Below are positions 8,128-58,271 of a stretch of 64,000 bases of DNA, piece after piece (position 1 is the first letter of the stretch; the number at the start of each line of letters is the position of its first letter). The notes beneath the pieces are model-generated. The model did not search any database. It saw only the letters and a program-made list of their open reading frames with translations, and was not told where the DNA came from. Location: contig CAZNOH010000004.1 in NCBI GenBank assembly GCA_964574655.1, forward strand, positions 66,046 through 130,045, given 5' to 3'. The position numbers were made by a program, and so were the translations under genes. This stretch comes from an uncultured Candidatus Saccharibacteria bacterium. Lineage in GTDB: Bacteria > Patescibacteriota > JABMPQ01 > JAQVVF01.

Positions 8128-8163
8128 TAAAAAAGCGGATCTTCATGATCCGCTTTTTTTTTG
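8128..8163 (+). terminator. rho-independent terminator
   Basis: Perfect 8-bp stem agcggatc/gatccgct with a 5-nt loop followed by a run of about 10 T. Confidence 0.8.
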
Positions 8164-8209
8164 TTTGAATTTGGCTTTGTTTTATTATATAATGATTTGA
8201 AGGATATTA

Positions 8210-8833: not shown

Positions 8834-8834
8834 T

Positions 8835-9236: not shown

Positions 9237-9280
9237 ATTGTTTGTGCAATTTGTGATTAATTTGTGTTAATTCGCGATTT

Positions 9281-13205: not shown

Positions 13206-14343
13206 ACACATGAATTTAGGCAAAGTTGGACCATCCCGTTCGCCATATAAAATAATTTTTGTTTTTGGGATTATCAGTTTTCTAGTGCTTGTTTTTGTTT
13301 TTTATACTTCTTTTTCTAAAGCGAAAATAACTTTGAATTTGCGAAAAGAAAAAATTGATACTACTTTTGAGATTGCTGTTGGCAAAGATAAAATTAACGC
13401 TACATCTGTTAGCGGTAGGTTTGTTGAAAAAGAAGTTGCAGGTTCTGATGAAATAACTGATATTAAAGAAAAAAAAGTAGATGATTTTGCTTCTGGCAAA
13501 GTTACAGTTTTTAACAAACAAAATAAAGCATTAACATTAGTTGCGTCTTCACAATTAAAACCTGAGAATTCGGAAATAATCTTTAAAACAACTGGGCCTT
13601 TAATTTTAAAACCAAAAGGCAAAGTTGAAATGAAAATTGTCGCCGGACAAAAAGGCGTTGCTGGTAATTTAACGCCTACAAAATTTACTTTTGTAAAACT
13701 TTGGCCAGGATGGAAAGATTTAGTCTATGCTGAAAATAAGGAGGAATTTACTGGAGGCGAAAAAACTGGCAGAATTGTTTCTGAAGAAGATATAAATAAT
13801 TTAAGAACAAAAATAGTTGATGATTTGTTTGCTAAATTTTTTGTTGATATAAAAAATGAGGAAAAAGACAATGAAGAACTCTGGGATCAATTATTCAAGA
13901 AAGAAATTTCTGGCTTTAAGACGTCAGCTGATGCAAGTGAAGAAGCAGATAAATTAAAGGCTGATTTAAAATTAAAGATTACAGGAGTTTTGTTAAATAG
14001 AGAGATGCTAGAAAATCTAGCAATCGCAAAGTTAAAAGGACAAATTATTGGCGAAAAAGAATTTGCAAAGCTTGATGATGATAATTTTAAAGCTGAAATA
14101 ATTGAAATGAATCCGCAAAAGAACCAAGCAATTTTCAAAATATCTTGCTCGGCTTTTTTAAAACCAATATTAGCTAAAGAAGCATTGGATAAAGAAAAAA
14201 TTACAGGATTAAATTATGATGAAATAAAAACTTATTATAAAAAATATCAAGAAGATATAGAGAGTGTTGATGTTTTTTTCTCGCCTTTCTGGCAGAAAAC
14301 AGTGCCAGGTGGAAATGGAAATGTGGAAATAGTTGAGGAATAA
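13195..14343 (+). CDS. hypothetical membrane-anchored protein
   Basis: 382 aa; N-terminal TM helix; no family recognised. Confidence 0.45.
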   Translation: MIFKHMNLGKVGPSRSPYKIIFVFGIISFLVLVFVFYTSFSKAKITLNLRKEKIDTTFEIAVGKDKINATSVSGRFVEKEVAGSDEITDIKEKKVDDFASGKVTVFNKQNKALTLVASSQLKPENSEIIFKTTGPLILKPKGKVEMKIVAGQKGVAGNLTPTKFTFVKLWPGWKDLVYAENKEEFTGGEKTGRIVSEEDINNLRTKIVDDLFAKFFVDIKNEEKDNEELWDQLFKKEISGFKTSADASEEADKLKADLKLKITGVLLNREMLENLAIAKLKGQIIGEKEFAKLDDDNFKAEIIEMNPQKNQAIFKISCSAFLKPILAKEALDKEKITGLNYDEIKTYYKKYQEDIESVDVFFSPFWQKTVPGGNGNVEIVEE

Positions 14344-14365
14344 TATCGAACCAAGAGATCAACCA

Positions 14366-14400
14366 AGAGGTCCGACCTCCAGCTAGGAGGTCGGACCTCT
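14366..14400. terminator. GC-rich perfect hairpin between convergent genes (bidirectional terminator candidate)
   Basis: agaggtccgacctcc-agcta-ggaggtcggacctct is a perfect 15-bp stem, sitting between the + gene ending 14343 and the - gene ending 14451. Confidence 0.55.
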
Positions 14401-14450
14401 ATGAAAACAAAAAAACCTAAAATTTTATTTTTAGGTTTTTATATTTTTAA

Positions 14451-15986
14451 TTATTGTCTTGGTTTCAGCTTTCTAGCATGTCGTTCAAGAATCTGTTGTA
14501 TAGCTTCTGGAAATTCGTTAAGTGATCTTGGAACAATACTCTGCGGACCAAAGTGGTATTTAACCATTTCTGGAATACCTTGCTCTGAAGTAATGGCTGT
14601 TCCTTCCATTGGACCAAATTGTCTTGCTTGTTCAACTGCATCTTTTGTATCTGCACTTTGGGTCGTACTATCAGTTATGTCAATAATCAAAGATCCAACT
14701 CGATCTGCTTCGGCACGCAAAGTTTGAATTCTTTTGCGCAATCTTGGCACCGCTGCCATAATAGCTTCAGCATCTTTGTTTTCTCCGCCAAAAGCTTCAA
14801 GCATTTGCACAATCCTTGATTTTGTTTTGCCATCGAATGATTCCTTAAATCCTTTGATTTGATATCTTAAATCAGTCGTAACATTGCCCTGATCATTGGC
14901 AAGAATTTCAACTGTAATATTATTCTCTTTTGCAGCTTCACAAATTGCAATACAGGCTTTGACGGCATTTTGAATTCTTTGTCTATCCTGATACATAGAA
15001 CCGCTGACATCAATCAATAGTTGCAAAGCTAAAGCTGTTTCTTCAGGATGTTCTCTTTTGCCCATTGGTTTTTCATGTCCTGATCCGGCTCGCATGATTC
15101 TTCTTCGTTCAGAATATCGTCCGCCTTTCCTACCCCATTCAAGTCCTGGATCTGTAACTTTTGGCACAAATCTTTTGAATGCCCTTTTTAATTGATCGGT
15201 GATTGGTCGAACTTCAGCGCTTAAGGCATTATATTTTTCACGCATTTCTGGAGTATCAAATTGATCGCGAGTTTTTAGAAGCTCATACTTTTCCCCTGCT
15301 AGTATCGCTGCATTTTCTGCATTTTTTTCGGCATCAGTCTTAGCTTGATCAGCTTTTTGTTCTAGTCTTTGTTGATGTACTTTTTTAAATTTATCAATAA
15401 TCCTCTTTAATTCTGGCGGCCACTTGTCAGTATTATTTGGATCTAATGGCTCTCCAGGCTCGCCTGGTTGTCCCCCCTTGCCTTTGCCCTTACCCTTTCC
15501 TGGTTTGCCTTCTTCTTTTTTTGGTGGGAATTGATCAATCAATCTTTTTTGGGCTGGCCAAATCGTATCTACAAATAATTTTTCTACTTGAGGCATTACT
15601 TTTAAAGCTGGATTGGTTGCATCTCCGGTAATTCTTCTTAAAGTTGGTTCAACTGCTTTAAATTCTTTGGCAACTTCTGGGTGCAATTTGTCTATTGACC
15701 AAGGCTTTGGAGTGTCCTTTAAATCATTAGCATAAACATTCCATAATGCTTCTAGTTTTAGAATAAATTTGAATTGCTCAGCAGGTTGCATCTCGCCAAG
15801 GCCTTTGGCAATGCTTGGAATAATTAATAATCTATTTTTTGCAAACATTTGTTCTCTTTCATTTGCATGCATTGGACCGCCGACTAGCCTTTCCATTCTT
15901 GGATCTTCGACGCAATTAACTAGGCTCATGATTGCACCTTCATCATATCCTTGCTTGCGAGCTAGTGTTCTTAATCTCTCAAACAT
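14451..15986 (-). CDS. von Willebrand factor A domain protein, CbbO/NorD-like (portion downstream of an in-frame TGA)
   Basis: MIDAS motif DVSGSM within a C-terminal VWA domain; Gly/Lys/Pro-rich linker (GKPGKGKGKGKGGQPGEPGEP); same frame as 16011..16394. Confidence 0.75.
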   Translation of the reverse strand: MFERLRTLARKQGYDEGAIMSLVNCVEDPRMERLVGGPMHANEREQMFAKNRLLIIPSIAKGLGEMQPAEQFKFILKLEALWNVYANDLKDTPKPWSIDKLHPEVAKEFKAVEPTLRRITGDATNPALKVMPQVEKLFVDTIWPAQKRLIDQFPPKKEEGKPGKGKGKGKGGQPGEPGEPLDPNNTDKWPPELKRIIDKFKKVHQQRLEQKADQAKTDAEKNAENAAILAGEKYELLKTRDQFDTPEMREKYNALSAEVRPITDQLKRAFKRFVPKVTDPGLEWGRKGGRYSERRRIMRAGSGHEKPMGKREHPEETALALQLLIDVSGSMYQDRQRIQNAVKACIAICEAAKENNITVEILANDQGNVTTDLRYQIKGFKESFDGKTKSRIVQMLEAFGGENKDAEAIMAAVPRLRKRIQTLRAEADRVGSLIIDITDSTTQSADTKDAVEQARQFGPMEGTAITSEQGIPEMVKYHFGPQSIVPRSLNEFPEAIQQILERHARKLKPRQ

Positions 15987-16010
15987 TGCAAATTGAGAAA
16001 ATTCAGCGTG

Positions 16011-16394
16011 TCATCGTTCATGCAAAATTTCTCCGCGCAAAAAACTTCTTGGAGCTTGACCTGCAGCATAAACAAAAGGAACACCAATTAAATATGTTTT
16101 TCTGGCTGGATCATCAACTACTTCACCTTTTTGAGTAACTCTTTTTGCTGGCACTTCAGCGCAACAAAAAGTATCTAAGTCAGGATCAGTATAGATTTCG
16201 ACATTTCGATCTGTAGTTGTTGCATAACGTTCCATTTCCAGCAATAAAGCTTCAGTTTGCTCTGGCCTTGCTGTCTCTGCGCGCGTTTCCATTTCTTGTC
16301 TAAAAGCATCTGGATCGCCCAGCTCTTGGAATTGAGGTCTTCTTTCAAATGAATCTAAATATGGCATAAAATTAATAATACGTAGGGGGCACAA
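16011..16394 (-). CDS. N-terminal segment of the VWA protein, separated from 14451..15986 by a single in-frame TGA
   Basis: Same reading frame as the downstream VWA ORF; read-through would give ...GEILHER*HAEFSQFAMFERL... Confidence 0.5.
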   Translation of the reverse strand: MCPLRIINFMPYLDSFERRPQFQELGDPDAFRQEMETRAETARPEQTEALLLEMERYATTTDRNVEIYTDPDLDTFCCAEVPAKRVTQKGEVVDDPARKTYLIGVPFVYAAGQAPRSFLRGEILHER

Positions 16395-16423
16395 AATCTT
16401 GTGCCCCTACAAAATTTAATTAT

Positions 16424-18304
16424 CTACGCTGTCTCGCCAAGCGTCTTGTCAATCAATTCTTCTAAAGCTTTTAAGGTCACGTCTAAACCTTCAATTGGAT
16501 TTTTTCTAAAATCATCCATAACTTCCAAATATGCTTTGCGAACATCGCCAGTATTTTTGTAAGCTTGAGTAACGGCAATTGTATCGCGCATACTGACACC
16601 AATAATATCCATACCGCCAGCTCTTCTTTCATAATATTTTCTCCAAGCATCGGCGATTCTTTCGATATCGCGAAGATCTGTAAGGATTTTTGTAGAATGC
16701 TCTTTTACATTATCGCTAACTAAATTTTTGAGGTTTTTATTTTTTTCTAAATCTGCTATTTTTCCTCCTTGAGTTGTTTCATTAATTATGACATCCCAAA
16801 GCAATTCAAATTCAGTGTCAGAGAGATCAGAAAATTCATTGAATTGTCCGCGCAAAACTGATACTTCGTCGCATACATAATCACGCAAAGAATTATCTTC
16901 TGCTTCTTTTTGAGCTAAGACGGCATCTGACCATTTTTCTTTATGTTTTTCAAATTCTCCCTTTCTCAATGCTGGATATTCCATGACAACTGCTTGACCT
17001 CTTGTTCTGGAAAGCAAGGCTTGGCCGATATCTCCGGCTGAGCCATAAGTTGCAGGATTGCCGGCAATGATAATGACAACTCCTTCAGCAACTGGAATAT
17101 GAACTCCATCATAATTCAAGCTTCTATTTTCATCACCAAGTCCATGAAGCATTGCTTGGACTTCTGGCTTTAAGGCATTGACTTCATCAATAAAAACAAT
17201 AGCGCCTGGAGTTTGAACGCCTTCGGCAAGATCAGTTAAGAATTTTTTTGTGCCTTCTTTTGAATCAAATTCATAATGAACAACAAGCTCAATTGATTCC
17301 ATGCCTCGAGCGCAAGGAAACCAAAAATAAGGACGATTGGTATTTCCAGCAATATGGCCTGCTGCTTCGTTTTTTCCTGTTCCAGCCTCGCCAATAATTA
17401 ATGTCAGACCTTTATTGCTTTTTAGTTGAGTATCTAAAGCTTTTACTATTTTTTCTAGTCCTAATATAAAAGTTGGAAATTCTTTAATGCTTTTTTTTAT
17501 TTTTGGCACTCTTTCTTTAGCATCGCCTCTTGTACTATTCAATACTACTAGCTGGCTTAACATTTCAGCAATCTGTTGAGTTAATTCTTCTTGATTAATT
17601 GAATCGCGCTTGAAACCTCTAGTTCTTTCAGAGACAGTTTCTATAGCATTTTCAACTTTATCAGCCAAAATATGAGGCGTTTCACCTTTGCCGCGTCTAA
17701 ATTTATTTTCCTCGCGTAAAATTGCTAAAATTTGTTTTCTGGCATCTTTGTCTCCTTGGGCAGAAAGTACTGACAATTTTTCGTAGTCATCAAAAATTTG
17801 TTTAGCAACTTTCCATTCATTTAAGGTAAGTGTATTTTCGACTGGCTCTAATGTTCTTCCTTGCTCTTCAACAGTTTTGCCAGGTTTGTATTCTCTATTG
17901 CGTCTTTTGTATGTAACAGCAACTTCGCTGCCATTTTGTGTTGCTTTGACTTGCCATCTTGGATTATCATGCGCGCCTGTCCAAATCAAATCTTCATGGC
18001 CTCTCAACCATTCTGGGATATTGGCTGGTGCTTCTTCTTTTCTTTCTGCTTGTTCGCCTCTGATTATTGGCGGTTCGTACTGTTCAAGCGGTGCCATTAA
18101 TTGATCAAAAACTTGAGCGAGAGATTTTCCTGAGACATCAATCTCGCCAATTTTTGTACCTTGTGGCATCATTAGTTGCATGCCTAATTCTTCGCCTAAA
18201 TCTGTACAATATTTTGTTTTTAAGCGACTTAATTCTTGTCTTAATTCGTCTGGAGTTAATTCTCTTTTAGGATCTTTTTCTAATGGTGCTTTTTCTACTG
18301 CCAT
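16424..18304 (-). CDS. AAA+ ATPase of the MoxR/CbbQ/NorQ (AAA_5) class with a roughly 300-aa N-terminal extension
   Basis: Walker A GEAGTGKN, Walker B VFIDEVN and an ALLSRTR sensor; block resembles CbbQ (IVFIDEVNALKPEVQAMLHGL...IIIAGNP). Confidence 0.8.
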   Translation of the reverse strand: MAVEKAPLEKDPKRELTPDELRQELSRLKTKYCTDLGEELGMQLMMPQGTKIGEIDVSGKSLAQVFDQLMAPLEQYEPPIIRGEQAERKEEAPANIPEWLRGHEDLIWTGAHDNPRWQVKATQNGSEVAVTYKRRNREYKPGKTVEEQGRTLEPVENTLTLNEWKVAKQIFDDYEKLSVLSAQGDKDARKQILAILREENKFRRGKGETPHILADKVENAIETVSERTRGFKRDSINQEELTQQIAEMLSQLVVLNSTRGDAKERVPKIKKSIKEFPTFILGLEKIVKALDTQLKSNKGLTLIIGEAGTGKNEAAGHIAGNTNRPYFWFPCARGMESIELVVHYEFDSKEGTKKFLTDLAEGVQTPGAIVFIDEVNALKPEVQAMLHGLGDENRSLNYDGVHIPVAEGVVIIIAGNPATYGSAGDIGQALLSRTRGQAVVMEYPALRKGEFEKHKEKWSDAVLAQKEAEDNSLRDYVCDEVSVLRGQFNEFSDLSDTEFELLWDVIINETTQGGKIADLEKNKNLKNLVSDNVKEHSTKILTDLRDIERIADAWRKYYERRAGGMDIIGVSMRDTIAVTQAYKNTGDVRKAYLEVMDDFRKNPIEGLDVTLKALEELIDKTLGETA

Positions 18305-18346
18305 AGTTTTAAAAAATTATTTTATATGAATTATTATATCATTTTT

Positions 18347-19501
18347 CTATCTTTCATGCTTGCCAAACCGATCATCAAACACAAGATTCCTTGAATTTTG
18401 GATAATATCAAGCTGTTCTTTTGTTAAATCTTCTTGTTTCAAGCCTGTAAGATAAACTTTTTTTGGACGATTGGTAAAATATTGCAAAGCTTGGACAGAA
18501 ATTCTTTCAAGATTAATAAAACTTAATCCTGCGTTACTTTCACTTAAAGCTTCAGCAACTTTGTCATCAATTTTTTTGAAACTATCAAAAGATAGTTGAC
18601 CAGAATATTCTTTGAAACCTTTTGCTGCTTCAACGCTTATTGACTGCATTACTGTGAAATCCAAACCATTCTTGCAACCAGCAAATTGAGCAGCAGCTTC
18701 TCTAGAAATTTTTGTCAATGCATGAAAATTAAGAAATTTTCCAAGGATTGAATTAACTTTGATGAATCTAGCTAATTCTCGAGTAATATCTTCTGGCAAA
18801 TCCGTCAGACCAATCTTTAACGCCATCCCATTAAAATCACCTAGCTCTTTTGCAGTTTCTTGATCAATTTTTGTTAAATCTGGCAGACTAATTATTCCGC
18901 CAAAATCGACAAAAGCATGGGCCTGCTCTTTTGATAAAGATGTAAGACCAAGACCAATCTCAACTCTATTTTTTCCTTCAATCAAAGCTCTGATGGTATT
19001 TACTGGCATTTTTTTTATTCCTCGAAAATATAAAGGTCCTTGATGTTTTACTAATTCTTTTGCAGAAGCTTCTGAAAGACTGTTTAGGCTATCAAGATTT
19101 AAATTGCCATGATGATTCGGAATCATTCTTTTGATCATTCTTTTTGCGATTTGATTGGGAAGAAATGTTAATCTCCGGATATCTCTATCATCAAAATTCC
19201 TACCAGTAGAAATCTTTTCATAAATTTCAAAATTTGTTTTTCGGGCTGGAATATCTTTTACTTCCTGAACGGTCATTTCTTCACCATAAAAATTTACTCT
19301 AACCTGCGATAAAGCTTGGTCTAATTTATCAACTGCTTCTTGATGAATAGGCGCGTCTGCTTGGATTGCTTCGGATATTTCATCAACTTGATCGATCGCT
19401 TGATTCAGAGCATCCGTTTTGGAAATTTCAAGAGAACCACTAGAATATTTTCCTGGCTCTGTTGCATCAAAAGTTTTTTCGGATAATTGTTCCTTGCTCA
19501 T
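18347..19501 (-). CDS. paralogous repeat protein (conserved N-terminal module plus LRR-like repeats), family member 1
   Basis: Shares N-terminal motifs (E..D..EPGK...LEI..T..L...IDQ...) and 22-24-aa C-terminal repeats with the four genes upstream. Confidence 0.55.
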   Translation of the reverse strand: MSKEQLSEKTFDATEPGKYSSGSLEISKTDALNQAIDQVDEISEAIQADAPIHQEAVDKLDQALSQVRVNFYGEEMTVQEVKDIPARKTNFEIYEKISTGRNFDDRDIRRLTFLPNQIAKRMIKRMIPNHHGNLNLDSLNSLSEASAKELVKHQGPLYFRGIKKMPVNTIRALIEGKNRVEIGLGLTSLSKEQAHAFVDFGGIISLPDLTKIDQETAKELGDFNGMALKIGLTDLPEDITRELARFIKVNSILGKFLNFHALTKISREAAAQFAGCKNGLDFTVMQSISVEAAKGFKEYSGQLSFDSFKKIDDKVAEALSESNAGLSFINLERISVQALQYFTNRPKKVYLTGLKQEDLTKEQLDIIQNSRNLVFDDRFGKHER

Positions 19502-19508
19502 ATTTTTG

Positions 19509-20573
19509 TTAGGATAATTGTTTTTTGGTTGCTTCCGAAAAAATCAGCATATTAAGAAAAAACTGTCTGTCTGGGCTTGTCTTAAGAAATTGAATAATAT
19601 CATCATCTAATTCATTAATGCGTTGCAAAGAGATTGTGACTGGCTGGGTTTTTGAAAACTTTTTCAAAGTTTCAAGATCAATTCTTTCTAAGGAATATAA
19701 ATATAAAGGGTCTTCACGCTCTGCTAATTTTTCTGCTAAACCTGGCGTAATAGCCTTTATTTCTAAATAAAGCTGGCCTTTAAATTTTTCTAATTCCGAA
19801 ACTGCGTCAGGCTGGATCTTATCAAGACCATAAATAGTCAAGTGAGTTCCCGAAAAATTAGCTATTGAGGCTGCAACTTCTTTTGTTAGATCTTTAATGC
19901 CGTATAATTCTAAATCAGGAGTTTTGATTGAAGCAAGGTGTTGCACGACTGTTTCATCTAGTTCTTTGCTAACAACAAGACGCAACTTTTTTCCCTCATA
20001 GGTCGAGAGTATTCTTGCTTGATGTTCTGACAATTCAGAAAGACCAAAATCCAATTCTCCTTCATGTGCTACAAGCTCTTGCAAGGCTTGCTCTGACATT
20101 TTTTTAATACCACATAAATGCAATTTCAAAGGTAAATTGCTAGGTCTTTCTCCATCAGCTTCTCTCCAATATTCTTCGCTAGTTGCAACATGTTTTAGAT
20201 GCTTGATCATTGCTGAATTTATATAAGTTAATTGTCGTGTCACAGCATCAAAAATGCCAGATCTAAAAGTTTTATCCTGAATTCTTTGCCAGATTTCTTT
20301 ATTTTTTTCTAAATCTGGAATTTGTCTATATTCTCCAACAGTCATTTCTTCTCCGAAAGCAGTAATTTTTAATTGCTCTAAACTGCTTTCTAGATCTAAA
20401 ACTTCTTGAGCTGTGACATTCTGATCTCTTTCTATTCTTTCTGCTAAATCACTTGCTTGATCAATAACTTGTCTGAGCTCTCTTGTTTGGACAATTTCAA
20501 AACCATGGCCTTTTTCTTTTCCTGGCTCGTTAATATCGGCTATATTTTCATGAAGCTGTTCTGGATTTGGCAT
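19509..20573 (-). CDS. paralogous repeat protein, family member 2
   Basis: N-terminus MPNPEQLHENIADINEPGK...; C-terminal L..L...A..L....G.L.L.GL repeats. Confidence 0.6.
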   Translation of the reverse strand: MPNPEQLHENIADINEPGKEKGHGFEIVQTRELRQVIDQASDLAERIERDQNVTAQEVLDLESSLEQLKITAFGEEMTVGEYRQIPDLEKNKEIWQRIQDKTFRSGIFDAVTRQLTYINSAMIKHLKHVATSEEYWREADGERPSNLPLKLHLCGIKKMSEQALQELVAHEGELDFGLSELSEHQARILSTYEGKKLRLVVSKELDETVVQHLASIKTPDLELYGIKDLTKEVAASIANFSGTHLTIYGLDKIQPDAVSELEKFKGQLYLEIKAITPGLAEKLAEREDPLYLYSLERIDLETLKKFSKTQPVTISLQRINELDDDIIQFLKTSPDRQFFLNMLIFSEATKKQLS

Positions 20574-20575
20574 TA

Positions 20576-21271
20576 TTAATTTTTAAATTTGGCAATTTGT
20601 TTTTTGAATTTATCAGGACAGTAGATTTTTCCTTCGAATTTGCTTAAAGATTTAGCTGCCTCATCTGACAGCTCAGTCAAACCTTGTATGGAAAGATTAA
20701 AATGATATACTCCTTCAAAAAGTTGGGCAATATCGGCTGGAATTGCAGTTAGGCCGTCTAAGAGAAGCAAGTTTTCTACTCCTGTTTCTAGATTTTGACG
20801 CAAGCGTACAAGCTCTTTAGCAGATTCAAAAGATAATGATTTTAGACTATGCAAATTTAATTTACATTTTCCGTCTATTTCCACGATCCCTCCGTGTTCA
20901 CTTAATATTTTAGCAAGTCCTACTGGAAGATAAGTTAAAAAAAATGACATCCTCTCAACAGTTAGATATTCATGAGACATTATTTTTTGAAAAAGTTTAG
21001 TATTCTGTTGCCTGTCAGGAATTTGTCTTATTTCATCCATTGTTAATTGGTCGCCGTAAAAATCAATTTTCATTCTATTCAAAGCACTATCTAAATCTAA
21101 AACTTCTTGCGCTGAAACATTTTCATCTCTTTCAATTTTTCCTGCAAGATCATTAACTCGTTCAACTATTTTTTCTAATTCCGAAGTTCTGGCAATTTCA
21201 AGACCAGCTTCTGTTTTTGCAGGCTCTTCGATGTCGGCTAAATTTTCATGAATTGGTTGTTCTGGTTTCAT
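20576..21271 (-). CDS. paralogous repeat protein, family member 3
   Basis: N-terminus MKPEQPIHENLADIEEPAK... Confidence 0.6.
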   Translation of the reverse strand: MKPEQPIHENLADIEEPAKTEAGLEIARTSELEKIVERVNDLAGKIERDENVSAQEVLDLDSALNRMKIDFYGDQLTMDEIRQIPDRQQNTKLFQKIMSHEYLTVERMSFFLTYLPVGLAKILSEHGGIVEIDGKCKLNLHSLKSLSFESAKELVRLRQNLETGVENLLLLDGLTAIPADIAQLFEGVYHFNLSIQGLTELSDEAAKSLSKFEGKIYCPDKFKKQIAKFKN

Positions 21272-21284
21272 TTTGTTTTACTAA

Positions 21285-21833
21285 TTACCAAAGCGGTGAA
21301 TAAATATATCCGCCTGGCACTTTTCTATCTTTAAGAGCCTCTTGAACTTCTTTAGTTTGCATTTCAAAAAATAAGCTTCCAAAATTAATGTTGCCATCAT
21401 GATAAGCTAAAGCTTTTGCTGAATCTACTGAAAGCGTGATAACTGAAAGACCGATATCGCCTTTATGCTTTTTGGCAAGATGTCTTGCTAATATAGCTGG
21501 CAAGTCAACAAGCCTCTGGATGCTACTATAATCATTATTATCCATGTCTCGCAAAATTTTAAGATTTCTTTTATAATCTGGCATGCTTCTTAATTCTTCT
21601 AATGTCATTATTTCGCCATCAATATCGATTTTAAGTTGGTCAAGCGCTTTATTTAAAGCTATTACTTGCTCAAATTTAACTGGCTCATCTTGCTGGATAG
21701 CTTCTGCTAATTCATTTGCTTGGTCAACTAATTTTTCTAATTCCGGAGTTTTGGCAATTTCAAGTCCGCCTGCTGGTTTTGCTGGCTCTTTGATGTCGGC
21801 TAAGTTTTCGTGAAGTTGTTCTGGATTTGTCAT
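21285..21833 (-). CDS. paralogous repeat protein, family member 4 (short)
   Basis: N-terminus MTNPEQLHENLADIKEPAK...; start codon overlaps the stop of the upstream gene by 1 nt. Confidence 0.6.
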   Translation of the reverse strand: MTNPEQLHENLADIKEPAKPAGGLEIAKTPELEKLVDQANELAEAIQQDEPVKFEQVIALNKALDQLKIDIDGEIMTLEELRSMPDYKRNLKILRDMDNNDYSSIQRLVDLPAILARHLAKKHKGDIGLSVITLSVDSAKALAYHDGNINFGSLFFEMQTKEVQEALKDRKVPGGYIYSPLW

Positions 21834-22735
21834 TATTTTTTGGTTTTAAAATAATCTATTTGCTGTTGTAAATTATCTGGAACATAAATATTTTCTCTAC
21901 GACTAAATATTTCGGCGGCAGAGTCAGATATTGATCCGAGACGATTAAAAACAATATCACCTTGATGATGACTTAGATGTTCTGCTACAGCATCAGAAAT
22001 TGATGTAACATTAAGAACAAGCATGCCTTGATGATGGCTTAGATGCTCTGCAGAAGCATCCGAAAAAATATCGAGTCTAACAAAATAGATATCACCTTGA
22101 TGATGACTCAAATATTCAGCTTGTTTGTCAGATAAAGTGGTAATACCAAGTGCTAGATTATCTTTGTGATGGCTTAAATGTTCGGCAGAAATATCAGATA
22201 AAGACTCTACCTCTCCCAAGCCGATAAACCCTTGATGTTCGCTCAAATAATTAGCAGACTGATCCGACAAAGAAGTCAAAGCGCGAAAATGCAAACTACC
22301 CTTGTGTTGACCAAGATATTTGGCAGCTGAATCTGGTAAAAATTCAAGCTTCTGGAAATCAATTGTATTGGGATTTTTGCTCAAAGTTTCTGCTGCAAAA
22401 TCGGTTAGAAAAGTTAATGCCTGTTCACTGTAAAGCTTGCCTGCTTGTATCCCCCTTAACCTAGGCAAATTTTTTTCTAAATCGGGAATATTTTTTACTT
22501 CGGCAACTGTCATTCTTTGTCCGCCAACATCAACTCTTAGTTGTCCTAAAGCTTTATCTAAATCCAAAACTTCTTGAGCAGTAATGTTTTCATCTTTTTC
22601 CATTCTCTCGGCTAAACTTTTTACCTCATCAATGATATTTTCTAATTCCGGACCAATGGCAACCTCAAGACCAGCTTCTGGTTTTGCTGGCTCTTTGATA
22701 TCGGCTAAATTTTCGCTGAGTTGTTCTGGTTTCAT
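21833..22735 (-). CDS. paralogous repeat protein, family member 5
   Basis: Start taken at MKPEQLSENLADIKEPAK (22735); the longer ORF in the track reads into the structured leader; five clear HLSHHQG-type repeats. Confidence 0.6.
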   Translation of the reverse strand: MKPEQLSENLADIKEPAKPEAGLEVAIGPELENIIDEVKSLAERMEKDENITAQEVLDLDKALGQLRVDVGGQRMTVAEVKNIPDLEKNLPRLRGIQAGKLYSEQALTFLTDFAAETLSKNPNTIDFQKLEFLPDSAAKYLGQHKGSLHFRALTSLSDQSANYLSEHQGFIGLGEVESLSDISAEHLSHHKDNLALGITTLSDKQAEYLSHHQGDIYFVRLDIFSDASAEHLSHHQGMLVLNVTSISDAVAEHLSHHQGDIVFNRLGSISDSAAEIFSRRENIYVPDNLQQQIDYFKTKK

Positions 22736-22747
22736 TTTTGTTAATAA

Positions 22748-22821
22748 TGTCATCCTGAACCGCGGTGAAGGATCCCGTGACAAAAAGATAACAACGGGAT
22801 TCTTCGCTTCGCTCAGAATGA
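22748..22821 (-). promoter_or_regulatory. GC-rich structured 5' leader upstream of the paralogue array
   Basis: Nested imperfect inverted repeats (gtcatcctga...tcagaatgac; ggatcccgt...acgggattc) 12 nt upstream of the start codon, overlapping the SD-like AGGA. Confidence 0.4.
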
Positions 22822-22947
22822 CAATTTTATTTTGCTGTTTTGTTTATTTTAACAAATTATTAGATTTTGGACAAACAGGAATTGATTTGAAATAATCTTG
22901 TAAATCTGTTAATCTGGCTATATACTTATAGAATTTAAATAAAACTC

Positions 22948-24693
22948 ATGGAAAATAATAAAATACAGAAAAATAGACATTCTTTATCCCACTTAATGAC
23001 AATGGCGATTTTGGAAAAGTATCCTAAAGCAAAACTTGGTGTTGGGCCAACAATTAAAGATGGATTTTACCAAGATTATGACTTGCCGATTAAATTAACG
23101 GAAGAAGATTTTAATTGGATTGAAAAAAGAATGCGAGAATTGATCAAGCAAAGAATAGCTTTTGTTCAGCATCAAATGTCCTTTGATGAGGCTTCAAAAT
23201 TGTATAAAGACGATCCATACAAAACTGAATTAATTAATGATCTTAAAAAATCTGGTGAAAAAGATGTCAGTTTTTACAAATCTGATTGGTTTGAAAATTT
23301 ATGCTTAGGACCTCATGTAGAGAATACTTCTGAAATTAATCCAGATGCTTTTAAATTGACTTTTTTGGCTGGCGCATATTGGCGAGGAAATGAAAAAAAT
23401 AAAATGTTGCAAAGAATTTACGGCATTGCTTTTGAAACAAAAAAAGAGTTAAAAGAATATTTGGAAAGCTTGAGATTAGCTGAAGCAAGAGATCATCGAA
23501 AATTAGGCAAAGAAATGGATTTATTTATTTTTTCTGATTTGATCGGCGCTGGTCTTCCTGTTTATACTTTTAAAGGCACAATTGTTCGGAGAGAAATCAT
23601 TAATCATCTTAATGAATTGCAAAAAGAAATTGGCTATCAAGAAGTGCATTCACCAAATATGAATCGAGCTGAGCTTTTTAAAGTTTCTGGCCATTTTGAC
23701 AAGTTTAAAGATAGCATGTTCAAGGTTGTTTCTAATTATACTAAAGAAGAATTCTTTTTAAAGCCGATGAATTGTCCTCAGCATACTCAGATTTTTGCAT
23801 CTCAACAAAGGAGTTACAAAGATCTGCCAATCAGAATTGCTGATTTTGCTAATCTTTATCGCGATGAAAAACCAGGCGAATTGAATGGCTTAACTCGTTT
23901 AAGATGCTTTTGCCAAGATGATGGACATAGTTTTTGCCGAGAAGATCAGATTACAGAAGAATTTTTGTCTGTACTAGAAATTATTGGAAAAGCAATGAAA
24001 ACTTATAATATGGAATATTCGGTTAGATTATCATTATGGGATCCGGAAAAAAAAGAAAAATATCTCGGCGAGCCTGAAATTTGGGAAAAATCACAAAAAT
24101 TATTGGAAAATATTTTAATTGATAACAAAATTAATTATACAAAAGCTTTAGGCGAGGCTGCTTTGTATGGACCAAAAATGGATTTGCTGACTAAAGATTC
24201 TTTGGGACGCGAATGGCAGATTTCTACAATTCAATTAGATTTCATTATGCCGAAAAGATTTGGCTTGAAATATATTGATAAAGACTCAAAAGAACAAACA
24301 CCTGTCATGGTTCATCGGGCAATTGTCGGCTCTCCAGAAAGATTTTTAGGAATTTTGATTGAACATTACGCTGGAAAATTTCCAGTCTGGCTTTCTCCTG
24401 TTCAAGTATTAATTTTATCTGTTTCTGAAAAATTTGGAGATAAAGCTAATGAGCTAGCCAAGAAGTTTAAGGATCAAGGCATAAGAACCGAAGTTGATAA
24501 TCGCGAAGAAAGCGTTGGCAAGAAAATTGCAGGATCGAGAAAACAAAAAGTGCCTTATACTATTGTTTTTGGAGAACGTGAAGAAAAATCTTCTGAGTTG
24601 CCGATAAGAATGAGGGATGGCAAAGTTGAAAATTTTGCAGTTGATAAATTTATTGAAAAAGTTAAAAAAGAAATTGTGGAACGAAGTTTATAA
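22948..24693 (+). CDS. thrS: threonyl-tRNA synthetase (short form lacking the N-terminal TGS domains)
   Basis: Class II core with RDHRKLGKEMDLF and the motif 3 block HRAIVGSPERFLGILIEHYAGKFPVWLSP; C-terminal anticodon-binding domain. Confidence 0.85.
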   Translation: MENNKIQKNRHSLSHLMTMAILEKYPKAKLGVGPTIKDGFYQDYDLPIKLTEEDFNWIEKRMRELIKQRIAFVQHQMSFDEASKLYKDDPYKTELINDLKKSGEKDVSFYKSDWFENLCLGPHVENTSEINPDAFKLTFLAGAYWRGNEKNKMLQRIYGIAFETKKELKEYLESLRLAEARDHRKLGKEMDLFIFSDLIGAGLPVYTFKGTIVRREIINHLNELQKEIGYQEVHSPNMNRAELFKVSGHFDKFKDSMFKVVSNYTKEEFFLKPMNCPQHTQIFASQQRSYKDLPIRIADFANLYRDEKPGELNGLTRLRCFCQDDGHSFCREDQITEEFLSVLEIIGKAMKTYNMEYSVRLSLWDPEKKEKYLGEPEIWEKSQKLLENILIDNKINYTKALGEAALYGPKMDLLTKDSLGREWQISTIQLDFIMPKRFGLKYIDKDSKEQTPVMVHRAIVGSPERFLGILIEHYAGKFPVWLSPVQVLILSVSEKFGDKANELAKKFKDQGIRTEVDNREESVGKKIAGSRKQKVPYTIVFGEREEKSSELPIRMRDGKVENFAVDKFIEKVKKEIVERSL

Positions 24694-24794: not shown

Positions 24795-26630
24795 CTATTT
24801 TTCCATTGATTTGAGTTTTTTCTTTGCTCGGAAAAGATGAATTTGATTTATGATTGTATTAAAGAAGATAGTTAACGCAAAAAATGTAAGCCAGATACTG
24901 ATATTTAAATTTAAGACATTAACTAACAATTTGGCTATTAGCATCGAGAAACAAATGTCATTAAAAAGAATAATAAATGAAGTGCTTTTCTTTATTTTTA
25001 ATAAATTTGTACAATAATTTATTATTTTAGTGCAATTTGTTATTGCATTTAAATAACCGACGCTTACAATCCAGAACAAGAGAGGTACCACAACAAAATA
25101 GTTGCTCCAATTTTGCCAAATAATAACTTGCGTTCCAACAAGACATGCTAACACAATAATTGCAGTAATCAGATTGGCAAACAGCGCCAAGTGAATATTT
25201 TGCTGAGGAAATCTTACTTCATCCGCTTTCTTTTTCATGGATTCGGGAATTACTGGTTCTTCGTATTTATATTCTAAGGGAGTAAAGGAAAATGGTTCTA
25301 ATTTAAATTCTACTTCAGAAACTTTTTCAGCTGATTTTTCGCTTTTGCGCTTTTGCCATGTTTTTCGCCACAAGGCTTTCGTACTATCCTTAATTGGTCC
25401 AAACAATCTTTGTCGCAAACTAAAAGCTTTTCTGAAAGCACCATTGAACGCGCCGAAGAGGCTTACTGGTCCATGCTTTTGAAGAGATTCTCTATAATTG
25501 CTACAATATTGCTTGAAAGCGTCTTGACACAGAGGATCATCGCAAAATGTAAAAAATTCATAGATATCAAGAAATCCTGTTGGAATCATCACCGAATCCT
25601 TATCGGTTTGATTGCCACAGAATTTGCAATGTCCGTCTTCATCCTGGACTGTCAATTTTCCTTCTTTTATCTCAATGAATGGGAATTGAAATTCCCCTCC
25701 CGCGAGTGAACGATTCAATACAGCCACTCGATCTTTCAGCTCTTGGACTTTTGCCTGACTTTCTTCAATATTGCCTGACGCTAGGTTTCGACTAGCTTCT
25801 GCATATAGTTTGGCTGCCCAAAGCAATGGGTCGTCTGTTTTTTGATCTGGTAACAAAAAAATTGGAGGATCATCGATGTCTTTTCCTTCCTGCCAGCTTT
25901 TGTTTAACAATACCTTGTAAGAAAACTTGTGGGAACCAATTTCATAATTCACGCGTACTCTCGGAAATCGACATGCCAAATTTTCGGCCAAATCCCAAGC
26001 AATACTTCCAATGCTTTTGTCAACAAAAGTAATTTCTAAAGCTTCACGCATTAATTCAATTCTGATTACAACTTCTTGGAATTGCAAATGGAACTCTCCA
26101 ATCATATCAGGCGGAGTACGGAATCTGAGAGATTGCAAATTAGGAAGCTCACAATACAATTGTTTTGGTTCATCGCCTCGTTTATCTGCAATCCGCGCTA
26201 ACATACCACTTCGATACGAAGGTTTGCGCAAAAGCTGGAATATTGCGTTTTCAGGCAAATTAATGACATGGCTAACGACAGCCTTTGCCCACTTTTGCAA
26301 CCAAGACCAATTTTGAAAAGTCGCCAAATTCTTTCTTAATCCTCCACCGATATTACTGATGCAAATCGTTGGTTTTCCGTCAACAAGTTCCAAATCTAGT
26401 TGCGGAGAAATATTGTGCCTTTTGGGATGTTCCATGATTTGCTGATAAAAAACTTCCGGCAGAGTACACCAGGCATGATATTTGACTAATTCAGGCGCAC
26501 CTAACTGATCAATAAGTAGTTGCCAAATGCCGGCATAATCAGCACGGATATAATCTTGATTTCCTAGTCCTCTTGTCAAATCCCAAATCTGCTGTAAATT
26601 AAGTAATTCTCTTGCAATGTCAATTATCAT
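24795..26630 (-). CDS. hypothetical protein: soluble N-terminal domain, Cys-cluster and C-terminal 4-TM module
   Basis: 611 aa; CKFCGNQ...CDDPLCQDAFKQYC; four hydrophobic helices in the last 130 aa or so; G+C visibly elevated. Confidence 0.5.
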   Translation of the reverse strand: MIIDIARELLNLQQIWDLTRGLGNQDYIRADYAGIWQLLIDQLGAPELVKYHAWCTLPEVFYQQIMEHPKRHNISPQLDLELVDGKPTICISNIGGGLRKNLATFQNWSWLQKWAKAVVSHVINLPENAIFQLLRKPSYRSGMLARIADKRGDEPKQLYCELPNLQSLRFRTPPDMIGEFHLQFQEVVIRIELMREALEITFVDKSIGSIAWDLAENLACRFPRVRVNYEIGSHKFSYKVLLNKSWQEGKDIDDPPIFLLPDQKTDDPLLWAAKLYAEASRNLASGNIEESQAKVQELKDRVAVLNRSLAGGEFQFPFIEIKEGKLTVQDEDGHCKFCGNQTDKDSVMIPTGFLDIYEFFTFCDDPLCQDAFKQYCSNYRESLQKHGPVSLFGAFNGAFRKAFSLRQRLFGPIKDSTKALWRKTWQKRKSEKSAEKVSEVEFKLEPFSFTPLEYKYEEPVIPESMKKKADEVRFPQQNIHLALFANLITAIIVLACLVGTQVIIWQNWSNYFVVVPLLFWIVSVGYLNAITNCTKIINYCTNLLKIKKSTSFIILFNDICFSMLIAKLLVNVLNLNISIWLTFFALTIFFNTIINQIHLFRAKKKLKSMEK

Positions 26631-54547: not shown

Positions 54548-57448
54548 TCATCGTTTAGCGTGTTCACAAATGTCACGATAATCACAAAATTTGCAGGCAA
54601 ATCCTGGAGTGGCAGTAAATTGTGACTCTTTTATTTTCAGAATTAGTTCTTGGACTTTTTGGATTATTTTTTCTTCTTTAATATCATTTTGCTTAGCTGT
54701 AAACTTTTTGTTCTGATCAATGAAATAAAGGCTAAGTTTTGAAGGCTTTAATTTTAAAACTTTTTGGCAAGCATAAGAATATAATAATAATTGCTCATTT
54801 TTTTCAACATCTTTTTCTCTTTTTGGCGGCTTGCCTGTTTTATAGTCAATAATTTCAATAGTGCCGTCTTCTAGCTTATCAATGCGATCAATTTTGCCCT
54901 TTAAGGAAACATCTTTTATCTTCAAGTTGAAACCCTTTTCTAAAAACAATGGAGCTTTGAAATTATTCTTATTAATTTTGTAAAATTCTTTTAAAGCTTT
55001 TTCACCTTCTTTTTTTCTTTCTAATTCATGTTTTTTTGAAAGATAATGATCGCCAATCCAAAAGCTTTGATAATAATTTAATAAATCCTGCCTTGATGGC
55101 ATTTTTCCTTTTTGCAAATCCTGATAAAAATTTTGCAAGGTTGCATGCATTGTTTTGCCATAACTAAAAGTATGCGAGCCTTGAGATGGAATTCGTAAGA
55201 TGTGAGCAAAGCGGTATTGATGAGGACAAGTTTCGAAAACTTTGAGTTGAGTATAGGAAAATTTTGTTGGAAGTTGGTATTTTATTTTTTTATTTTGGCT
55301 AACTAAAATTTCTGGTTCATTGATTTCTGCTTGAAGATTAGGTAACTCTGTCTGAATTTCTTTATCAGAAAAATGATCAGAATTCTTTTTTATTTCAATT
55401 AAAAATCTAGACATTTTCTTTTTTCTTTTGCCTCCATAATCATTTGCAGAAGTGAAAAATAATCTTTTCTTAGCTCTTGTCATAGCAACATAGAATAGCC
55501 TCCTTTCTTCTTGGATATTTGAATTAACGCTTGGCAGTTGTTCTTTAATTAATTTTTCTGGAAGTTCAATCAAGTCTCTCCTGTTTCTTGGCGGAAATTT
55601 TCCTTCAACTAAATTCACTATAAAAACATTATCAAATTCCAAGCCCTTGGAAGAATGAATCGTCATTATTTTGATTGAGTCTGGGCCTTCATCTAATTGC
55701 ACTGGCGATGGATTGTCGCCTGCTTCAATCATCAAATCTAGCTGATCAACAAACTCTTGAACTGATAATTTTTTGTTTTCCTGAGATTCTTGAATTTTCT
55801 TGAAGAATAAAGAAATATTTAAAATCTTTTTTTCTGATTCTAAATCCTTGCTCTCTTGAATATATTTAAGATAATTTGATGATTTCAAAAAATCTAACAA
55901 AACTTCAGCGGCATTTTTTTCTTGGCTTTGCTTGGAATGTTTTTTCACTAGCTCGCTAACGATTTTAAATTTGCTGATGCTTTCTTCACTCAAGCCAACA
56001 ATTCTATTTGGAGTCTGGCTTAATTCAAAGAGAGATAAATTTTTTTTCCTAGCATAATTTAAAAGCTTGATTATATCTTCTTGCAATAATTTGAAAATCG
56101 GTAAATTTAAGACGCGATAAAAATTGATGTCATCGTAAAAATTAGAAATAACTAGAAGATAAGAAATCAAATCCATTATTTCAGTCTGAGAATATAATCC
56201 CCTGGAAGCAATAAATTGATAAGGAATCTTTTTGCGAGATAATAAATTTATAAAAATTTCAGCTGAAGAATTAGCACGCACTAAAATTGCAAAATCTGAC
56301 CAATTTGATTTATCTTTTTGCTTTAACTTGATTATATTATTTATAACTTCAACTGCCTCTTGCTCGTAAGTTGCCTTGTGAATATGGGTAATTGCTAAAT
56401 CGCCTTTTGACTTAATTTGAGATTTTAGCTTTTTATTAATTTTATATTTTGCTTCTAGACGATCTGGATTATTTAGTTGAATTGAATTATATGCGAGATC
56501 TAAAATCGGCTGAACTGATCGATAATTCTCAGTCAAAACTATTTTTTTGCTTTTTGGAAAATCTTTTTGAAATTGCAAAATATTGCTGACAGAAGCGCCG
56601 CGGAATTTATAGATCGCCTGATCATCATCGCCGACAACTGTTAAATTTAATTGTGGCGATGCTAAAAGTTGGAGTAATTTATACTGGGCAAAATTAGTAT
56701 CTTGAAATTCATCAACTAAAATATATTGAAATTGTTTTTGATATTTTTTAAGTAGATGTTTTCTTTTCTTTAACAAACTTAAAGTCTGGATAATTAAATC
56801 ACCAAAATCCATTTGGCTCTCGCTAACCATAAGTTCTTGATATTTTTTGTAAGCTTTGGCGATTTCTGATATCTTATTAATTTCTTCCTTGTCCGCCGTA
56901 GCTCCAGCAGGAGCGGAGGCGGATTGATCTAAATCGTCATTTGGTTTTAATTTTTTAACAAACTTTAAATATTCATCTGGCAAAATATTTTCATCTTTGG
57001 CGCGGGAAAAATGTTTAATTAATTCGGAAATAAAAGAATTAGGATTTCCTAATGGCCTGTAATATTTCAAATCAAAATCAAAAATTTTGGATTTGATAAA
57101 CATCCATTGCTCGGCTTGCGTTAATAATTTGTAATTCGGATCCAAGCCCATATCTAATGCATTGTCTTTTAAAATTCGATCACAAAAACTATGAAAAGTT
57201 TCAATCCATAAATCGGTGTAGCCATAAGGCATTAATTTATCCACTCGCTCCTCCATTTCAGAGGCTGCTTTTTCTGTAAAAGTTAAGGCTAAAATATTTT
57301 CTGGTTTGACCTTTTTTTTCAAAATTAAATAAGCCAATTTTTTAGTTATGGCTGTTGTTTTTCCTGTGCCAGCGCCAGCAACAATTAATAATGGGCCTTT
57401 CTGATGAGTGACGGCTTGGCGTTGTTGTAAATTAAGATCTTGTAGCAT
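54548..57448 (-). CDS. UvrD/PcrA-like helicase fused to a C-terminal Cys-containing PD-(D/E)xK (RecB/Cas4-like) nuclease
   Basis: Walker A AGAGTGKTT, helicase motifs, and a C-terminal IDRIDKL...DYKTGK...CKFCDYRDIC. Confidence 0.8.
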   Translation of the reverse strand: MLQDLNLQQRQAVTHQKGPLLIVAGAGTGKTTAITKKLAYLILKKKVKPENILALTFTEKAASEMEERVDKLMPYGYTDLWIETFHSFCDRILKDNALDMGLDPNYKLLTQAEQWMFIKSKIFDFDLKYYRPLGNPNSFISELIKHFSRAKDENILPDEYLKFVKKLKPNDDLDQSASAPAGATADKEEINKISEIAKAYKKYQELMVSESQMDFGDLIIQTLSLLKKRKHLLKKYQKQFQYILVDEFQDTNFAQYKLLQLLASPQLNLTVVGDDDQAIYKFRGASVSNILQFQKDFPKSKKIVLTENYRSVQPILDLAYNSIQLNNPDRLEAKYKINKKLKSQIKSKGDLAITHIHKATYEQEAVEVINNIIKLKQKDKSNWSDFAILVRANSSAEIFINLLSRKKIPYQFIASRGLYSQTEIMDLISYLLVISNFYDDINFYRVLNLPIFKLLQEDIIKLLNYARKKNLSLFELSQTPNRIVGLSEESISKFKIVSELVKKHSKQSQEKNAAEVLLDFLKSSNYLKYIQESKDLESEKKILNISLFFKKIQESQENKKLSVQEFVDQLDLMIEAGDNPSPVQLDEGPDSIKIMTIHSSKGLEFDNVFIVNLVEGKFPPRNRRDLIELPEKLIKEQLPSVNSNIQEERRLFYVAMTRAKKRLFFTSANDYGGKRKKKMSRFLIEIKKNSDHFSDKEIQTELPNLQAEINEPEILVSQNKKIKYQLPTKFSYTQLKVFETCPHQYRFAHILRIPSQGSHTFSYGKTMHATLQNFYQDLQKGKMPSRQDLLNYYQSFWIGDHYLSKKHELERKKEGEKALKEFYKINKNNFKAPLFLEKGFNLKIKDVSLKGKIDRIDKLEDGTIEIIDYKTGKPPKREKDVEKNEQLLLYSYACQKVLKLKPSKLSLYFIDQNKKFTAKQNDIKEEKIIQKVQELILKIKESQFTATPGFACKFCDYRDICEHAKR
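56888..56928 (+). repeat. family-A element (copy g), in-frame inside the helicase-nuclease gene
   Basis: cttgtccgccgtagctccagcaggagcggaggcggattgat; the minus strand encodes DQSASAPAGATADKE within the helicase. Confidence 0.7.
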
Positions 57449-58271
57449 TTTGTTGAACTTTCAATTTCTCTAATCTTTCTTTAAGTTTAAAAGGTAGCTG
57501 AATTTTTTCGTCATCTAGAAATTTAAGTCCTTTGTCAGAAACATGCGCTAGATTATTTAGCAATGTTGGTCTTGAAGTTTGTCTTTTTCCAATAAGCATT
57601 GCCGCGGCGTCTGAAAGTGAATCAACGCCTCTCAGCCAGAGTGGGCCTTTAAAATGAGATAAGTGTTGTGCTTGTGAATCTGAAATCGATGCAAGACCAT
57701 CTAAACAAATTGAAGAACTTGCTGATTGACCTAATTCTTGCGTAGCCTCGTCTGATATTTTCATTAAACCATTCAAAAGGATGCTTCCTTTAAATTTTCT
57801 TAATTCTTTTGCTGTTCCTGTAGAAATTTTTTTTACATTGTTTAAATCTATATGAACAAAGTTTTCTGGCTGAGGACCGGAAGGCTGCCTGTTTTCAAAA
57901 AGTGTGTTTAAAAGATCAACATATTTCTGAGCTACTGTTGGAATAATATATGTTAAATCAGATGTTTCGATACCGCCTTCCATTATTTTTTTCCAGAGTA
58001 CTAAATTATGTTTAAAATCCGGAATTTCCTTAATTTCTGCCAAAGTCATTTGCTCGCCACAAACATCAAATTTTAATTCGCCCAAATCTTTTTCTAAATC
58101 TAAAACTTGTTCGCCTGTTACATTTCTGTCTTGTTGTATTGCTTCTGCAAGTTGATTTGCTTTAGCAACAACACTTTCTAATTCTGGAGTTTGAGCAATT
58201 TCTAAACCATCAGAAGATTTTTCTGATGGTTCTTGGGTATCTTTTAATTCTATTTGTGGTTTTTCGGGCAT
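57432..58271 (-). CDS. paralogous repeat protein, family member 6 (distant copy)
   Basis: N-terminus ...DTQEPSEKSSDGLEIAQTPELE... and LS.SD..A..LS.F.G.L.L repeats; overlaps the helicase start by 17 nt. Confidence 0.55.
   Translation of the reverse strand: MPEKPQIELKDTQEPSEKSSDGLEIAQTPELESVVAKANQLAEAIQQDRNVTGEQVLDLEKDLGELKFDVCGEQMTLAEIKEIPDFKHNLVLWKKIMEGGIETSDLTYIIPTVAQKYVDLLNTLFENRQPSGPQPENFVHIDLNNVKKISTGTAKELRKFKGSILLNGLMKISDEATQELGQSASSSICLDGLASISDSQAQHLSHFKGPLWLRGVDSLSDAAAMLIGKRQTSRPTLLNNLAHVSDKGLKFLDDEKIQLPFKLKERLEKLKVQQNATRS

Follow-up and report, generated by a model that had tools for sequence, protein, structure and literature searches.

The 64,000-nt stretch analyzed here (hereafter the window; positions count from its first letter), from contig CAZNOH010000004.1 of an uncultured Candidatus Saccharibacteria bacterium, raises the question of what purpose is served by five consecutive open reading frames (ORFs; g1–g5) that fill positions 18347-22735 of its minus strand. 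A first-pass annotation of these letters had described them as a family with a constant N-terminal adaptor and a variable leucine-rich repeat (LRR) region. Our analysis supports this architecture and places the array within a conserved unit that the annotation had omitted, comprising a MoxR-type AAA+ ATPase gene and, downstream of it, a gene encoding an HExxH motif and a VWA domain. On balance, we lean toward a reading in which the five genes encode paralogous, interchangeable cytoplasmic binding subunits, the third component of an ATPase/VWA/peptidase system.

Each array protein begins with a common N-terminal domain (NTD), recognized with a hidden Markov model (HMM) of the family, and continues into an LRR region of variable length, as listed below.

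21833..22735, minus strand: g1, NTD with eight LRR units and, at the C-terminus, a basic helix; 300 aa from its ATG, with the frame open to a TTG at 22783 (316 aa); NTD HMM E = 2e-32.
21285..21833, minus strand: g2, NTD with about two LRR units; 182 aa.
20576..21271, minus strand: g3, NTD with a few divergent LRR units; 231 aa.
19509..20573, minus strand: g4, NTD with a divergent LRR region; 354 aa.
18347..19501, minus strand: g5, NTD with a long divergent LRR region; 384 aa, assigned from the ORF and the NTD HMM.
57432..58271, minus strand: g6, a solo sixth family member just upstream of a UvrD/PD-(D/E)XK helicase-nuclease gene; 279 aa; NTD HMM E = 1e-38.

The tandem arrangement of five genes of one family (182–384 aa, with a shared N-terminal module) is thereby confirmed, and the sixth copy to which the annotation had alluded is now placed, 35 kb away from the array and with no ATPase or VWA gene nearby. 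The gene boundaries had been reported to overlap by 1–8 nt, but only g1 and g2 overlap, by 1 nt, and the other junctions are gaps of 2–13 nt. None of g1–g6 has a hydrophobic segment or a signal-peptide-like N-terminus (maximum 19-residue Kyte-Doolittle average ≤1.23), and the first 25 residues of the array proteins carry a net charge of −2 to −5, in agreement with the earlier prediction that these proteins lack signal peptides and are cytoplasmic. The only records that contain the exact sequence of g3 are a Logan contig of SRR13723393 and one NCBI contig.

The NTD spans about 105 residues in the array, with 38–50% pairwise identity and 18 invariant columns, and an HMM of the wider family scores each of g1–g5 at E = 1e-30 to 1e-37. 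At the DNA level, a 233-nt stretch recurs in four array genes with 61–71% identity. A disordered acidic tip is followed by a helix-loop-helix bearing an almost invariant Asp, the Asp of a D-x-x-V-T loop, which is the only near-universal residue of the core; the net charge of the domain ranges from −8 to −13 in the six proteins. No match to the array proteins was found in Pfam, NCBIfam, PADLOC, or PHROGs. An exhaustive HMMER search with the NTD profile against 1.84 billion representatives returned 137 clusters at E ≤1e-3, of which 69 reached E ≤1e-10. The domain is N-terminal in the representatives of these 137 clusters, save for one false positive (P0053) and two probable mis-called starts. 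Wherever a source names the family proteins, they are hypothetical proteins of Patescibacteria, and we found no description in the literature of the NTD family, or of the NTD/ATPase/VWA trio in Patescibacteria. The possibility that the similarity is a low-complexity artefact was rejected in view of the very low E-values of the HMM and the confident structure model. One further candidate, P0142 (L018/L019), was excluded from the family, as it lacks the NTD and matched through its repeats alone; at 10001-10585 in L018/L019, a 194-aa protein with LRR units of this kind and no NTD is encoded directly after a type I restriction-modification operon.

Downstream of the NTD, a self-built repeat HMM (consensus LTSLSDEAAEYLSKHKGDLYL) found units with a modal start-to-start spacing of 23 residues, eight of them in g1 and two in g2, with a range of 2–8 in the array proteins and of 0 to 11 across the 137 family representatives. 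The repeats are thus periodic and variable in number, as the annotation had proposed. In the DNA of g1 they appear as 56-nt repeats at a spacing of 66–69 nt, and Tandem Repeats Finder did not detect the coding repeats because they are too divergent. No Pfam LRR model matched any of the five array proteins at E up to 1. When 188 full-length units were profiled, Leu or Ile prevailed at positions 1, 4, 12, 19, and 21, with an entropy of at most 1 bit at the structural Leu positions, while the x positions of the GxLxLxG strand were the most variable (3.4–3.9 bits). The strand face of LRR proteins is the usual ligand-binding surface.

Structure prediction and profile comparison agree with this assignment. 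The AlphaFold2 model of g1 (pLDDT 89, pTM 0.82) shows disorder at residues 1–22, a small alpha/beta domain at about residues 23–105, and then a regular strand/helix solenoid with a period of about 23 residues that ends in a terminal helix. Foldseek comparison of this model with the PDB ranked LIC12234, SHOC2, ribonuclease inhibitor, and Skp2 at the top, with a best E of only 8.7e-4, and a 65-sequence family profile matched the F-box/LRR protein FBXL2 (6o60_C) at E = 4.8e-10. The repeat region is an LRR, a beta/alpha solenoid of the cysteine-containing or ribonuclease-inhibitor-like class. It resembles the repeats of FBXL2 and Skp2 in the profile match to FBXL2 and in the predicted strand/helix solenoid, and differs from them in the lack of an F-box, in the 23-residue period, and in the lack of a Pfam LRR match.

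Two genes immediately follow the array in the direction of transcription.

16424..18304, minus strand: MoxR-type AAA+ ATPase, 626 aa, with AAA_5 at residues 302–433 (Pfam E = 6.6e-17) and long flanking N- and C-terminal regions.
14451..16394, minus strand: HExxH-plus-VWA protein, read as one gene from two ORFs in one frame, 16394..16011 (127 aa) and 15986..14451 (511 aa).

The ATPase gene lies immediately downstream of the array, co-oriented and tightly spaced. The nearest solved relatives of its product are NorQ and CbbQ, and its homologs fall into 59 clusters (36–100% identity), all from Patescibacteria where the source names an organism; the Walker B DE, a sensor Asn, and an Arg are conserved across the family. 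Exact look-ups of the ATPase and ThrRS products returned no record. The HExxH-VWA protein consists of an N-terminal metallopeptidase-like region, a linker of low-complexity and coiled sequence, and, at the C-terminus, a VWA domain whose metal ion-dependent adhesion site (MIDAS; DVSGS) is intact. Its uninterrupted homologs are 640–810 aa long and 46–80% identical. Across seven sequences H116, E117, G119, and H120 (HExGH) and the DxSxS motif are invariant, as is an EDPRMERLVGG block about 35 residues after HExGH. Profile searches with this protein against PDB sequences found nothing. Judging by the conserved ATPase motifs and the invariant DxSxS and HExGH in seven homologs, the ATPase/VWA engine looks functional.

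In the window, a single in-frame TGA (16011-16013) splits the HExxH-VWA gene and takes the place of the Gly in HERGH, which is intact in the 80% identical ortholog of locus L031. A nonsense mutation, a polymorphism, or an error of assembly could account for this TGA. An alternative genetic code, in which TGA is read as Gly, is unlikely because 6 of the 45 long ORFs listed for the window end in TGA; in the helicase-nuclease gene, a second stop codon directly follows its TGA. Since an ATG lies 8 codons past the TGA in the VWA gene, the VWA part could still be made.

To establish whether the association of the three components extends beyond the window, we collected seven metagenome loci through a search with the VWA protein and six further loci through an independent search with the ATPase. 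In the VWA-anchored set, NTD genes flank the VWA gene in five of seven loci; L027 holds a truncated NTD-family remnant between its ATPase and VWA genes, and L029 was outside the inspection for remnants. All six loci fetched with the ATPase hold the ATPase, the VWA protein, and tandem partner genes. The number of NTD genes per related locus ranges from 1 to 8, with gene orders such as NTDx5-AAA-VWA, NTDx2-AAA-VWA-NTD, NTDx3-VWA-NTDx4, and AAA-NTDx3-VWA, and seven NTD genes with a VWA gene take up the 8.9-kb contig L023. No secretion-system genes were present in any inspected locus, and neither the window nor the 13 related loci contain a nor or cbb client operon. The ThrRS encoded beside the array shares 87% identity with its counterpart in a Patescibacteria metagenome-assembled genome, its other matches being from Parcubacteria, Falkowbacteria, and related groups.

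The unit varies between relatives. In L001, whose ThrRS is 87% identical, the block is absent, and the syntenic genes (DnaE, a 172-aa gene, a 377-aa gene, ThrRS) adjoin one another; the distance from the 377-aa gene to ThrRS is 62 bp, versus 8.6 kb (14344-22947) in the window. In L031, whose ATPase and VWA proteins are about 80% identical, the block occupies the same site with two NTD genes. Copy number across related genomes, a check the first-pass annotation had called for, therefore stands at five, two, or zero genes, and the 8.6-kb block is an accessory unit. Repeat and ORF scans found no flanking direct repeats, integrase, or transposase around it. Two candidate signals were noted.

22846..22874, minus strand: promoter-like site upstream of g1 (TTGTCC, 17 nt, TAAAAT, with TG), a weak consensus match.
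14366..14400, no strand assigned: perfect inverted repeat of 15 bp, located between the VWA gene and the 382-aa gene, whose ends converge there.

Promoter-like sites are no commoner in the array region than in shuffled sequence. The inverted repeat is a probable bidirectional terminator at the distal edge of the block.

The array proteins evolve faster than their neighbors. The positional ortholog of g5, a 388-aa gene next to the ATPase gene in L031, shares 44% identity with it at a nonsynonymous divergence (dN) of 0.49, whereas the dN values for the same genome pair are 0.13 for the ATPase, 0.10 for VWA, 0.22 for ThrRS, 0.12 for the 382-aa gene, and 0.07 for DnaE. The value for g5 is therefore 2–7 times that of the flanking genes. 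The N-terminal module had been taken to be more conserved than the repeats, a claim that does not hold between these positional orthologs (43% identity in the N-terminal module versus 45% in the LRR part). The other NTD protein of L031 (190 aa) scores nearly equally against g1 and g2, and it has about four repeats by reading of the sequence, or three by the repeat HMM, compared with eight in g1. The annotation had further described a head-to-tail duplication. We reject recent tandem duplication on the grounds of synonymous saturation (synonymous divergence, dS, of 0.7–1.7) and because the C-terminal region of each window paralog is closer to proteins of other genomes than to its tandem neighbors, which indicates that the duplications are old. 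The view of the array as a diversifying repertoire is only partly borne out: hypervariable strand positions, the 2–7-fold dN, and relatives hypermutated by a diversity-generating retroelement speak for it, but dN/dS above 1 was not shown.

The hypermutated relatives belong to a wider set of proteins in which the same adaptor is joined to other C-terminal modules. Among the family representatives, the NTD is followed by the 23-aa LRR, by a second repeat type (LTSAEGLVLP...), or by a lectin-like domain. The second repeat, of about 21–22 residues (LTSAEGLVLPxxIGGxLxL), was seen after the NTD in P0066, P0068, P0087, P0105, and P0129. In L032, two NTD-family genes with lectin-like C-termini have variable repeats of 122 nt at their 3' ends; these match a template repeat, and a reverse transcriptase gene (RVT_1) is adjacent. 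The parts of this element are as follows.

13717-13838 and 17361-17482 (L032): the two variable repeats.
17824-17945 (L032): the template repeat.
18422-19402 (L032): the reverse transcriptase gene.

Between template and variable repeats, 42 of 43 mismatches fall at template adenines, mostly in AAC codons, and this pattern is the signature of a diversity-generating retroelement. The window has no template/variable repeat pair in 14200-23100 and no reverse transcriptase among the ORFs scanned. At L033, a reverse transcriptase gene (580-1647) lies 8 kb from the system, and no template/variable pair tying it to an NTD gene was found there.

In more distant systems, whose ATPases are 37–45% identical, WD40 or other beta-rich domains take the place of the LRRs in the tandem genes.

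4840-9365 (L034): WD40 or beta-rich tandem partner genes, with three 388-aa copies of near-identical length.
5865-10235 (L035): WD40 or beta-rich tandem partner genes.
9920-10618 (L036): WD40 or beta-rich tandem partner gene.

The partner proteins of L034, L035, and L036 share only the helix-loop-helix core of the NTD. Alignment of their N-termini with this core by hhalign gave a probability of 95% and E = 4.6e-8, with the near-universal Asp included.

How such a system might operate is best approached through characterized relatives. The MIDAS of NorQ/NorD binds acidic residues on the surface of the client and a VWA finger enters the ATPase pore, while the N-terminal part of the VWA partner has been proposed to bind the client and give specificity (PMC9976466, PMC13036017). 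The present system resembles NorQ/NorD and CbbQ/CbbO in that its AAA_5 ATPase has them as nearest solved relatives and its partner combines a C-terminal VWA/MIDAS with an unrelated N-terminal domain. It differs from them in an ATPase that is twice as long, an HExxH motif on the partner, the lack of a client operon nearby, and candidate clients that form a variable multigene family.

A parallel is also found in the MoxR-vWA ternary systems described by Kaur et al. (2020, eLife), in which, as those authors propose, the vWA domain captures a partner peptide and the ATPase releases it in an altered conformation (PMC7159879). The two kinds of system share a MoxR-class AAA+ ATPase, a vWA protein bearing a MIDAS, and a conserved third protein with a proposed role in sensing or binding. 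They are alike, too, in their accessory and diversifying character, and some of the described systems include a peptidase domain. In the systems of Kaur et al. the third component is VMAP, an inactive STAND NTPase, or FtsH, whereas here it is the new NTD joined to LRR, WD40, or lectin-like modules and occurs in 1–8 tandem copies. The array proteins had no Pfam, NCBIfam, or PADLOC match, the presence of a VMAP model in Pfam-A being unconfirmed. The vWA protein here bears no beta-propeller, and the WD40 repeats of the divergent loci reside in separate proteins. Moreover, the vWA domain is C-terminal and HExGH, the only extra motif, N-terminal here, whereas effectors lie C-terminal to vWA in the described systems, whose enrichment is in multicellular bacteria rather than Patescibacteria. 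The system would work like the MoxR-vWA ternary type but lacks three of its defining features, namely the third component, the effector position, and the taxonomic setting.

The third precedent concerns the variable module. Dore et al. (2024, PNAS) described retroelement-diversified lectin-like "antigen sensors" beside MoxR-like ATPases (PMC10907252). Shared with these sensors are the MoxR-like ATPase next to one or more target genes and the pairing of an uncharacterized N-terminal extension with a variable C-terminal binding domain; L032, with its two hypermutated targets, has exactly this layout. The variable module in the window, unlike theirs, is an LRR array encoded in the germline.

The domain architecture, the conserved neighborhood, the presence/absence and copy-number variation, and the fast evolution are observed directly, and it is from the precedent of NorQ/NorD and related conflict systems that we infer NTD docking, C-terminal ligand binding, and an ATPase/peptidase output. 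In the favored reading of interchangeable binding subunits, the concave LRR face of each paralog would bind a different ligand, and the common acidic NTD would dock all paralogs on one engine, at either the VWA MIDAS or the HExxH region. The likeliest contact would be one in which an acidic NTD residue completes the metal coordination of the VWA MIDAS. The ATPase could then remodel or release the complex, and the HExxH region may supply a proteolytic step that acts on the NTD or on the bound target. Such an assembly would most probably serve in the cytoplasm as a repertoire of sensors or receptors, for biological conflict or for recognition of a partner.

Several observations weigh against this reading. 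The Walker A motif of the ATPase (GEAGTGKN, residues 305–312) ends in Asn where Ser/Thr is usual, and 51 of 53 homologs share this Asn. Pfam VWA_2 matches all seven HExxH-VWA homologs, but below its curated cutoff, and the TGA inside the catalytic motif means that the system of the window may be partly inactive. The NTD modeled alone (pLDDT 74) has no recognizable fold relative (best Foldseek E against the PDB, 2.7), and its proposed docking role therefore rests on context. Searches against PADLOC-DB 2.0 gave chance-level matches only (E ≥0.011) and no known defense family, and no other defense genes flank the block in the window. The estimate of dN/dS is about 0.4 and not above 1, a value that cannot test positive selection because dS is saturated. 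Finally, the solo g6 lies far from any ATPase/VWA pair.

A more ambitious version of the same idea is possible, and we put it forward tentatively. Ultra-small Patescibacteria might possess an immune-receptor-like repertoire in which germline LRR, WD40, or retroelement-hypermutated lectin-like binders share the new adaptor and one MoxR/VWA/metallopeptidase engine, such that many specificities converge on one ATP-driven proteolytic output for defense or for recognition of host or partner cells.

The alternative that survives best, unlikely as we consider it, is that the array proteins are an effector repertoire exported to the host cell of this episymbiotic bacterium, with the NTD as a signal for non-classical secretion or for chaperone binding and the MoxR/VWA pair as a dedicated export chaperone. 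Many pathogen LRR effectors have a conserved N-terminal delivery region and a variable LRR region, and the fast evolution and variable copy number of the array proteins would suit such a role. The organism, moreover, is a Patescibacterium, of a lineage that lives on host bacteria (PMC13622651), and a MoxR ATPase is reported to be necessary for Tat export of RipA in Mycobacterium tuberculosis (PMC4810496). Secretion-system genes are, however, missing from the inspected loci, the acidic, hydrophilic N-termini are unlike Sec or Tat signals, and the conserved partner bears a peptidase-like motif and a MIDAS but no export function.

Somewhat less probable again is a housekeeping assembly machine comparable to NorQ/NorD, CbbQ/CbbO, or Rea1 with Rsa4/Ytm1, in which the ATPase/VWA pair would mature or remodel a cellular complex and the NTD-repeat proteins would be assembly factors or scaffolds for it. 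The kinship of the ATPase with NorQ and CbbQ, weak CobS/CobT-like matches, and a VWA domain that is C-terminal, as in NorD, are what such a machine would lead one to expect, and a layout with LRR or WD40 repeats after a small N-terminal domain is reminiscent of the MIDAS ligands Rsa4 and Ytm1. Against it stand the absence of the whole block from a close relative, a copy number of 1 to 8, array proteins that evolve several-fold faster than their neighbors, family members that are hypermutated by a retroelement, and the lack of a conserved candidate client operon nearby. Least probable is a decaying remnant, in which a nonsense codon in the HExxH motif has disabled the system here and left the array to drift: the TGA does replace a conserved Gly of HExGH that is intact in the L031 ortholog, and TGA is otherwise a stop codon in the window, but long open frames persist in g1–g5, in the ATPase gene, and in the 511-aa VWA part, the ATG shortly after the TGA could allow the VWA part to be made, and the TGA itself may reflect a polymorphism or an error of assembly or sequencing.

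Three further features of the window lie outside the block.

44884-48243, minus strand: GyrB gene with an intein (an Intein_splicing match between the GyrB and Toprim parts).
24795-26630, minus strand: 611-aa ORF after ThrRS, with a hydrophobic C-terminal part and no Pfam match.
2419-8122: two adjacent genes for very large proteins, of 961 and 936 aa, with C-terminal DUF4214; they are kept upstream of DnaE in L001 and L031.

At the position of the 611-aa ORF, a gene for a membrane protein of about 231 aa is found in both L001 and L031, which marks this site as a second variable spot.

The genomes of Patescibacteria are tiny, yet 8.6 kb is spent on the block here. About 130 clusters of "hypothetical proteins" are now united as one family with a testable partner set. 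If the arrays are sensors on one engine, they would offer a compact prokaryotic model of many receptors sharing one transducer; the new adaptor domain could then define a MIDAS-ligand interface, and some of the retroelement-diversified proteins of Patescibacteria would gain a functional context.

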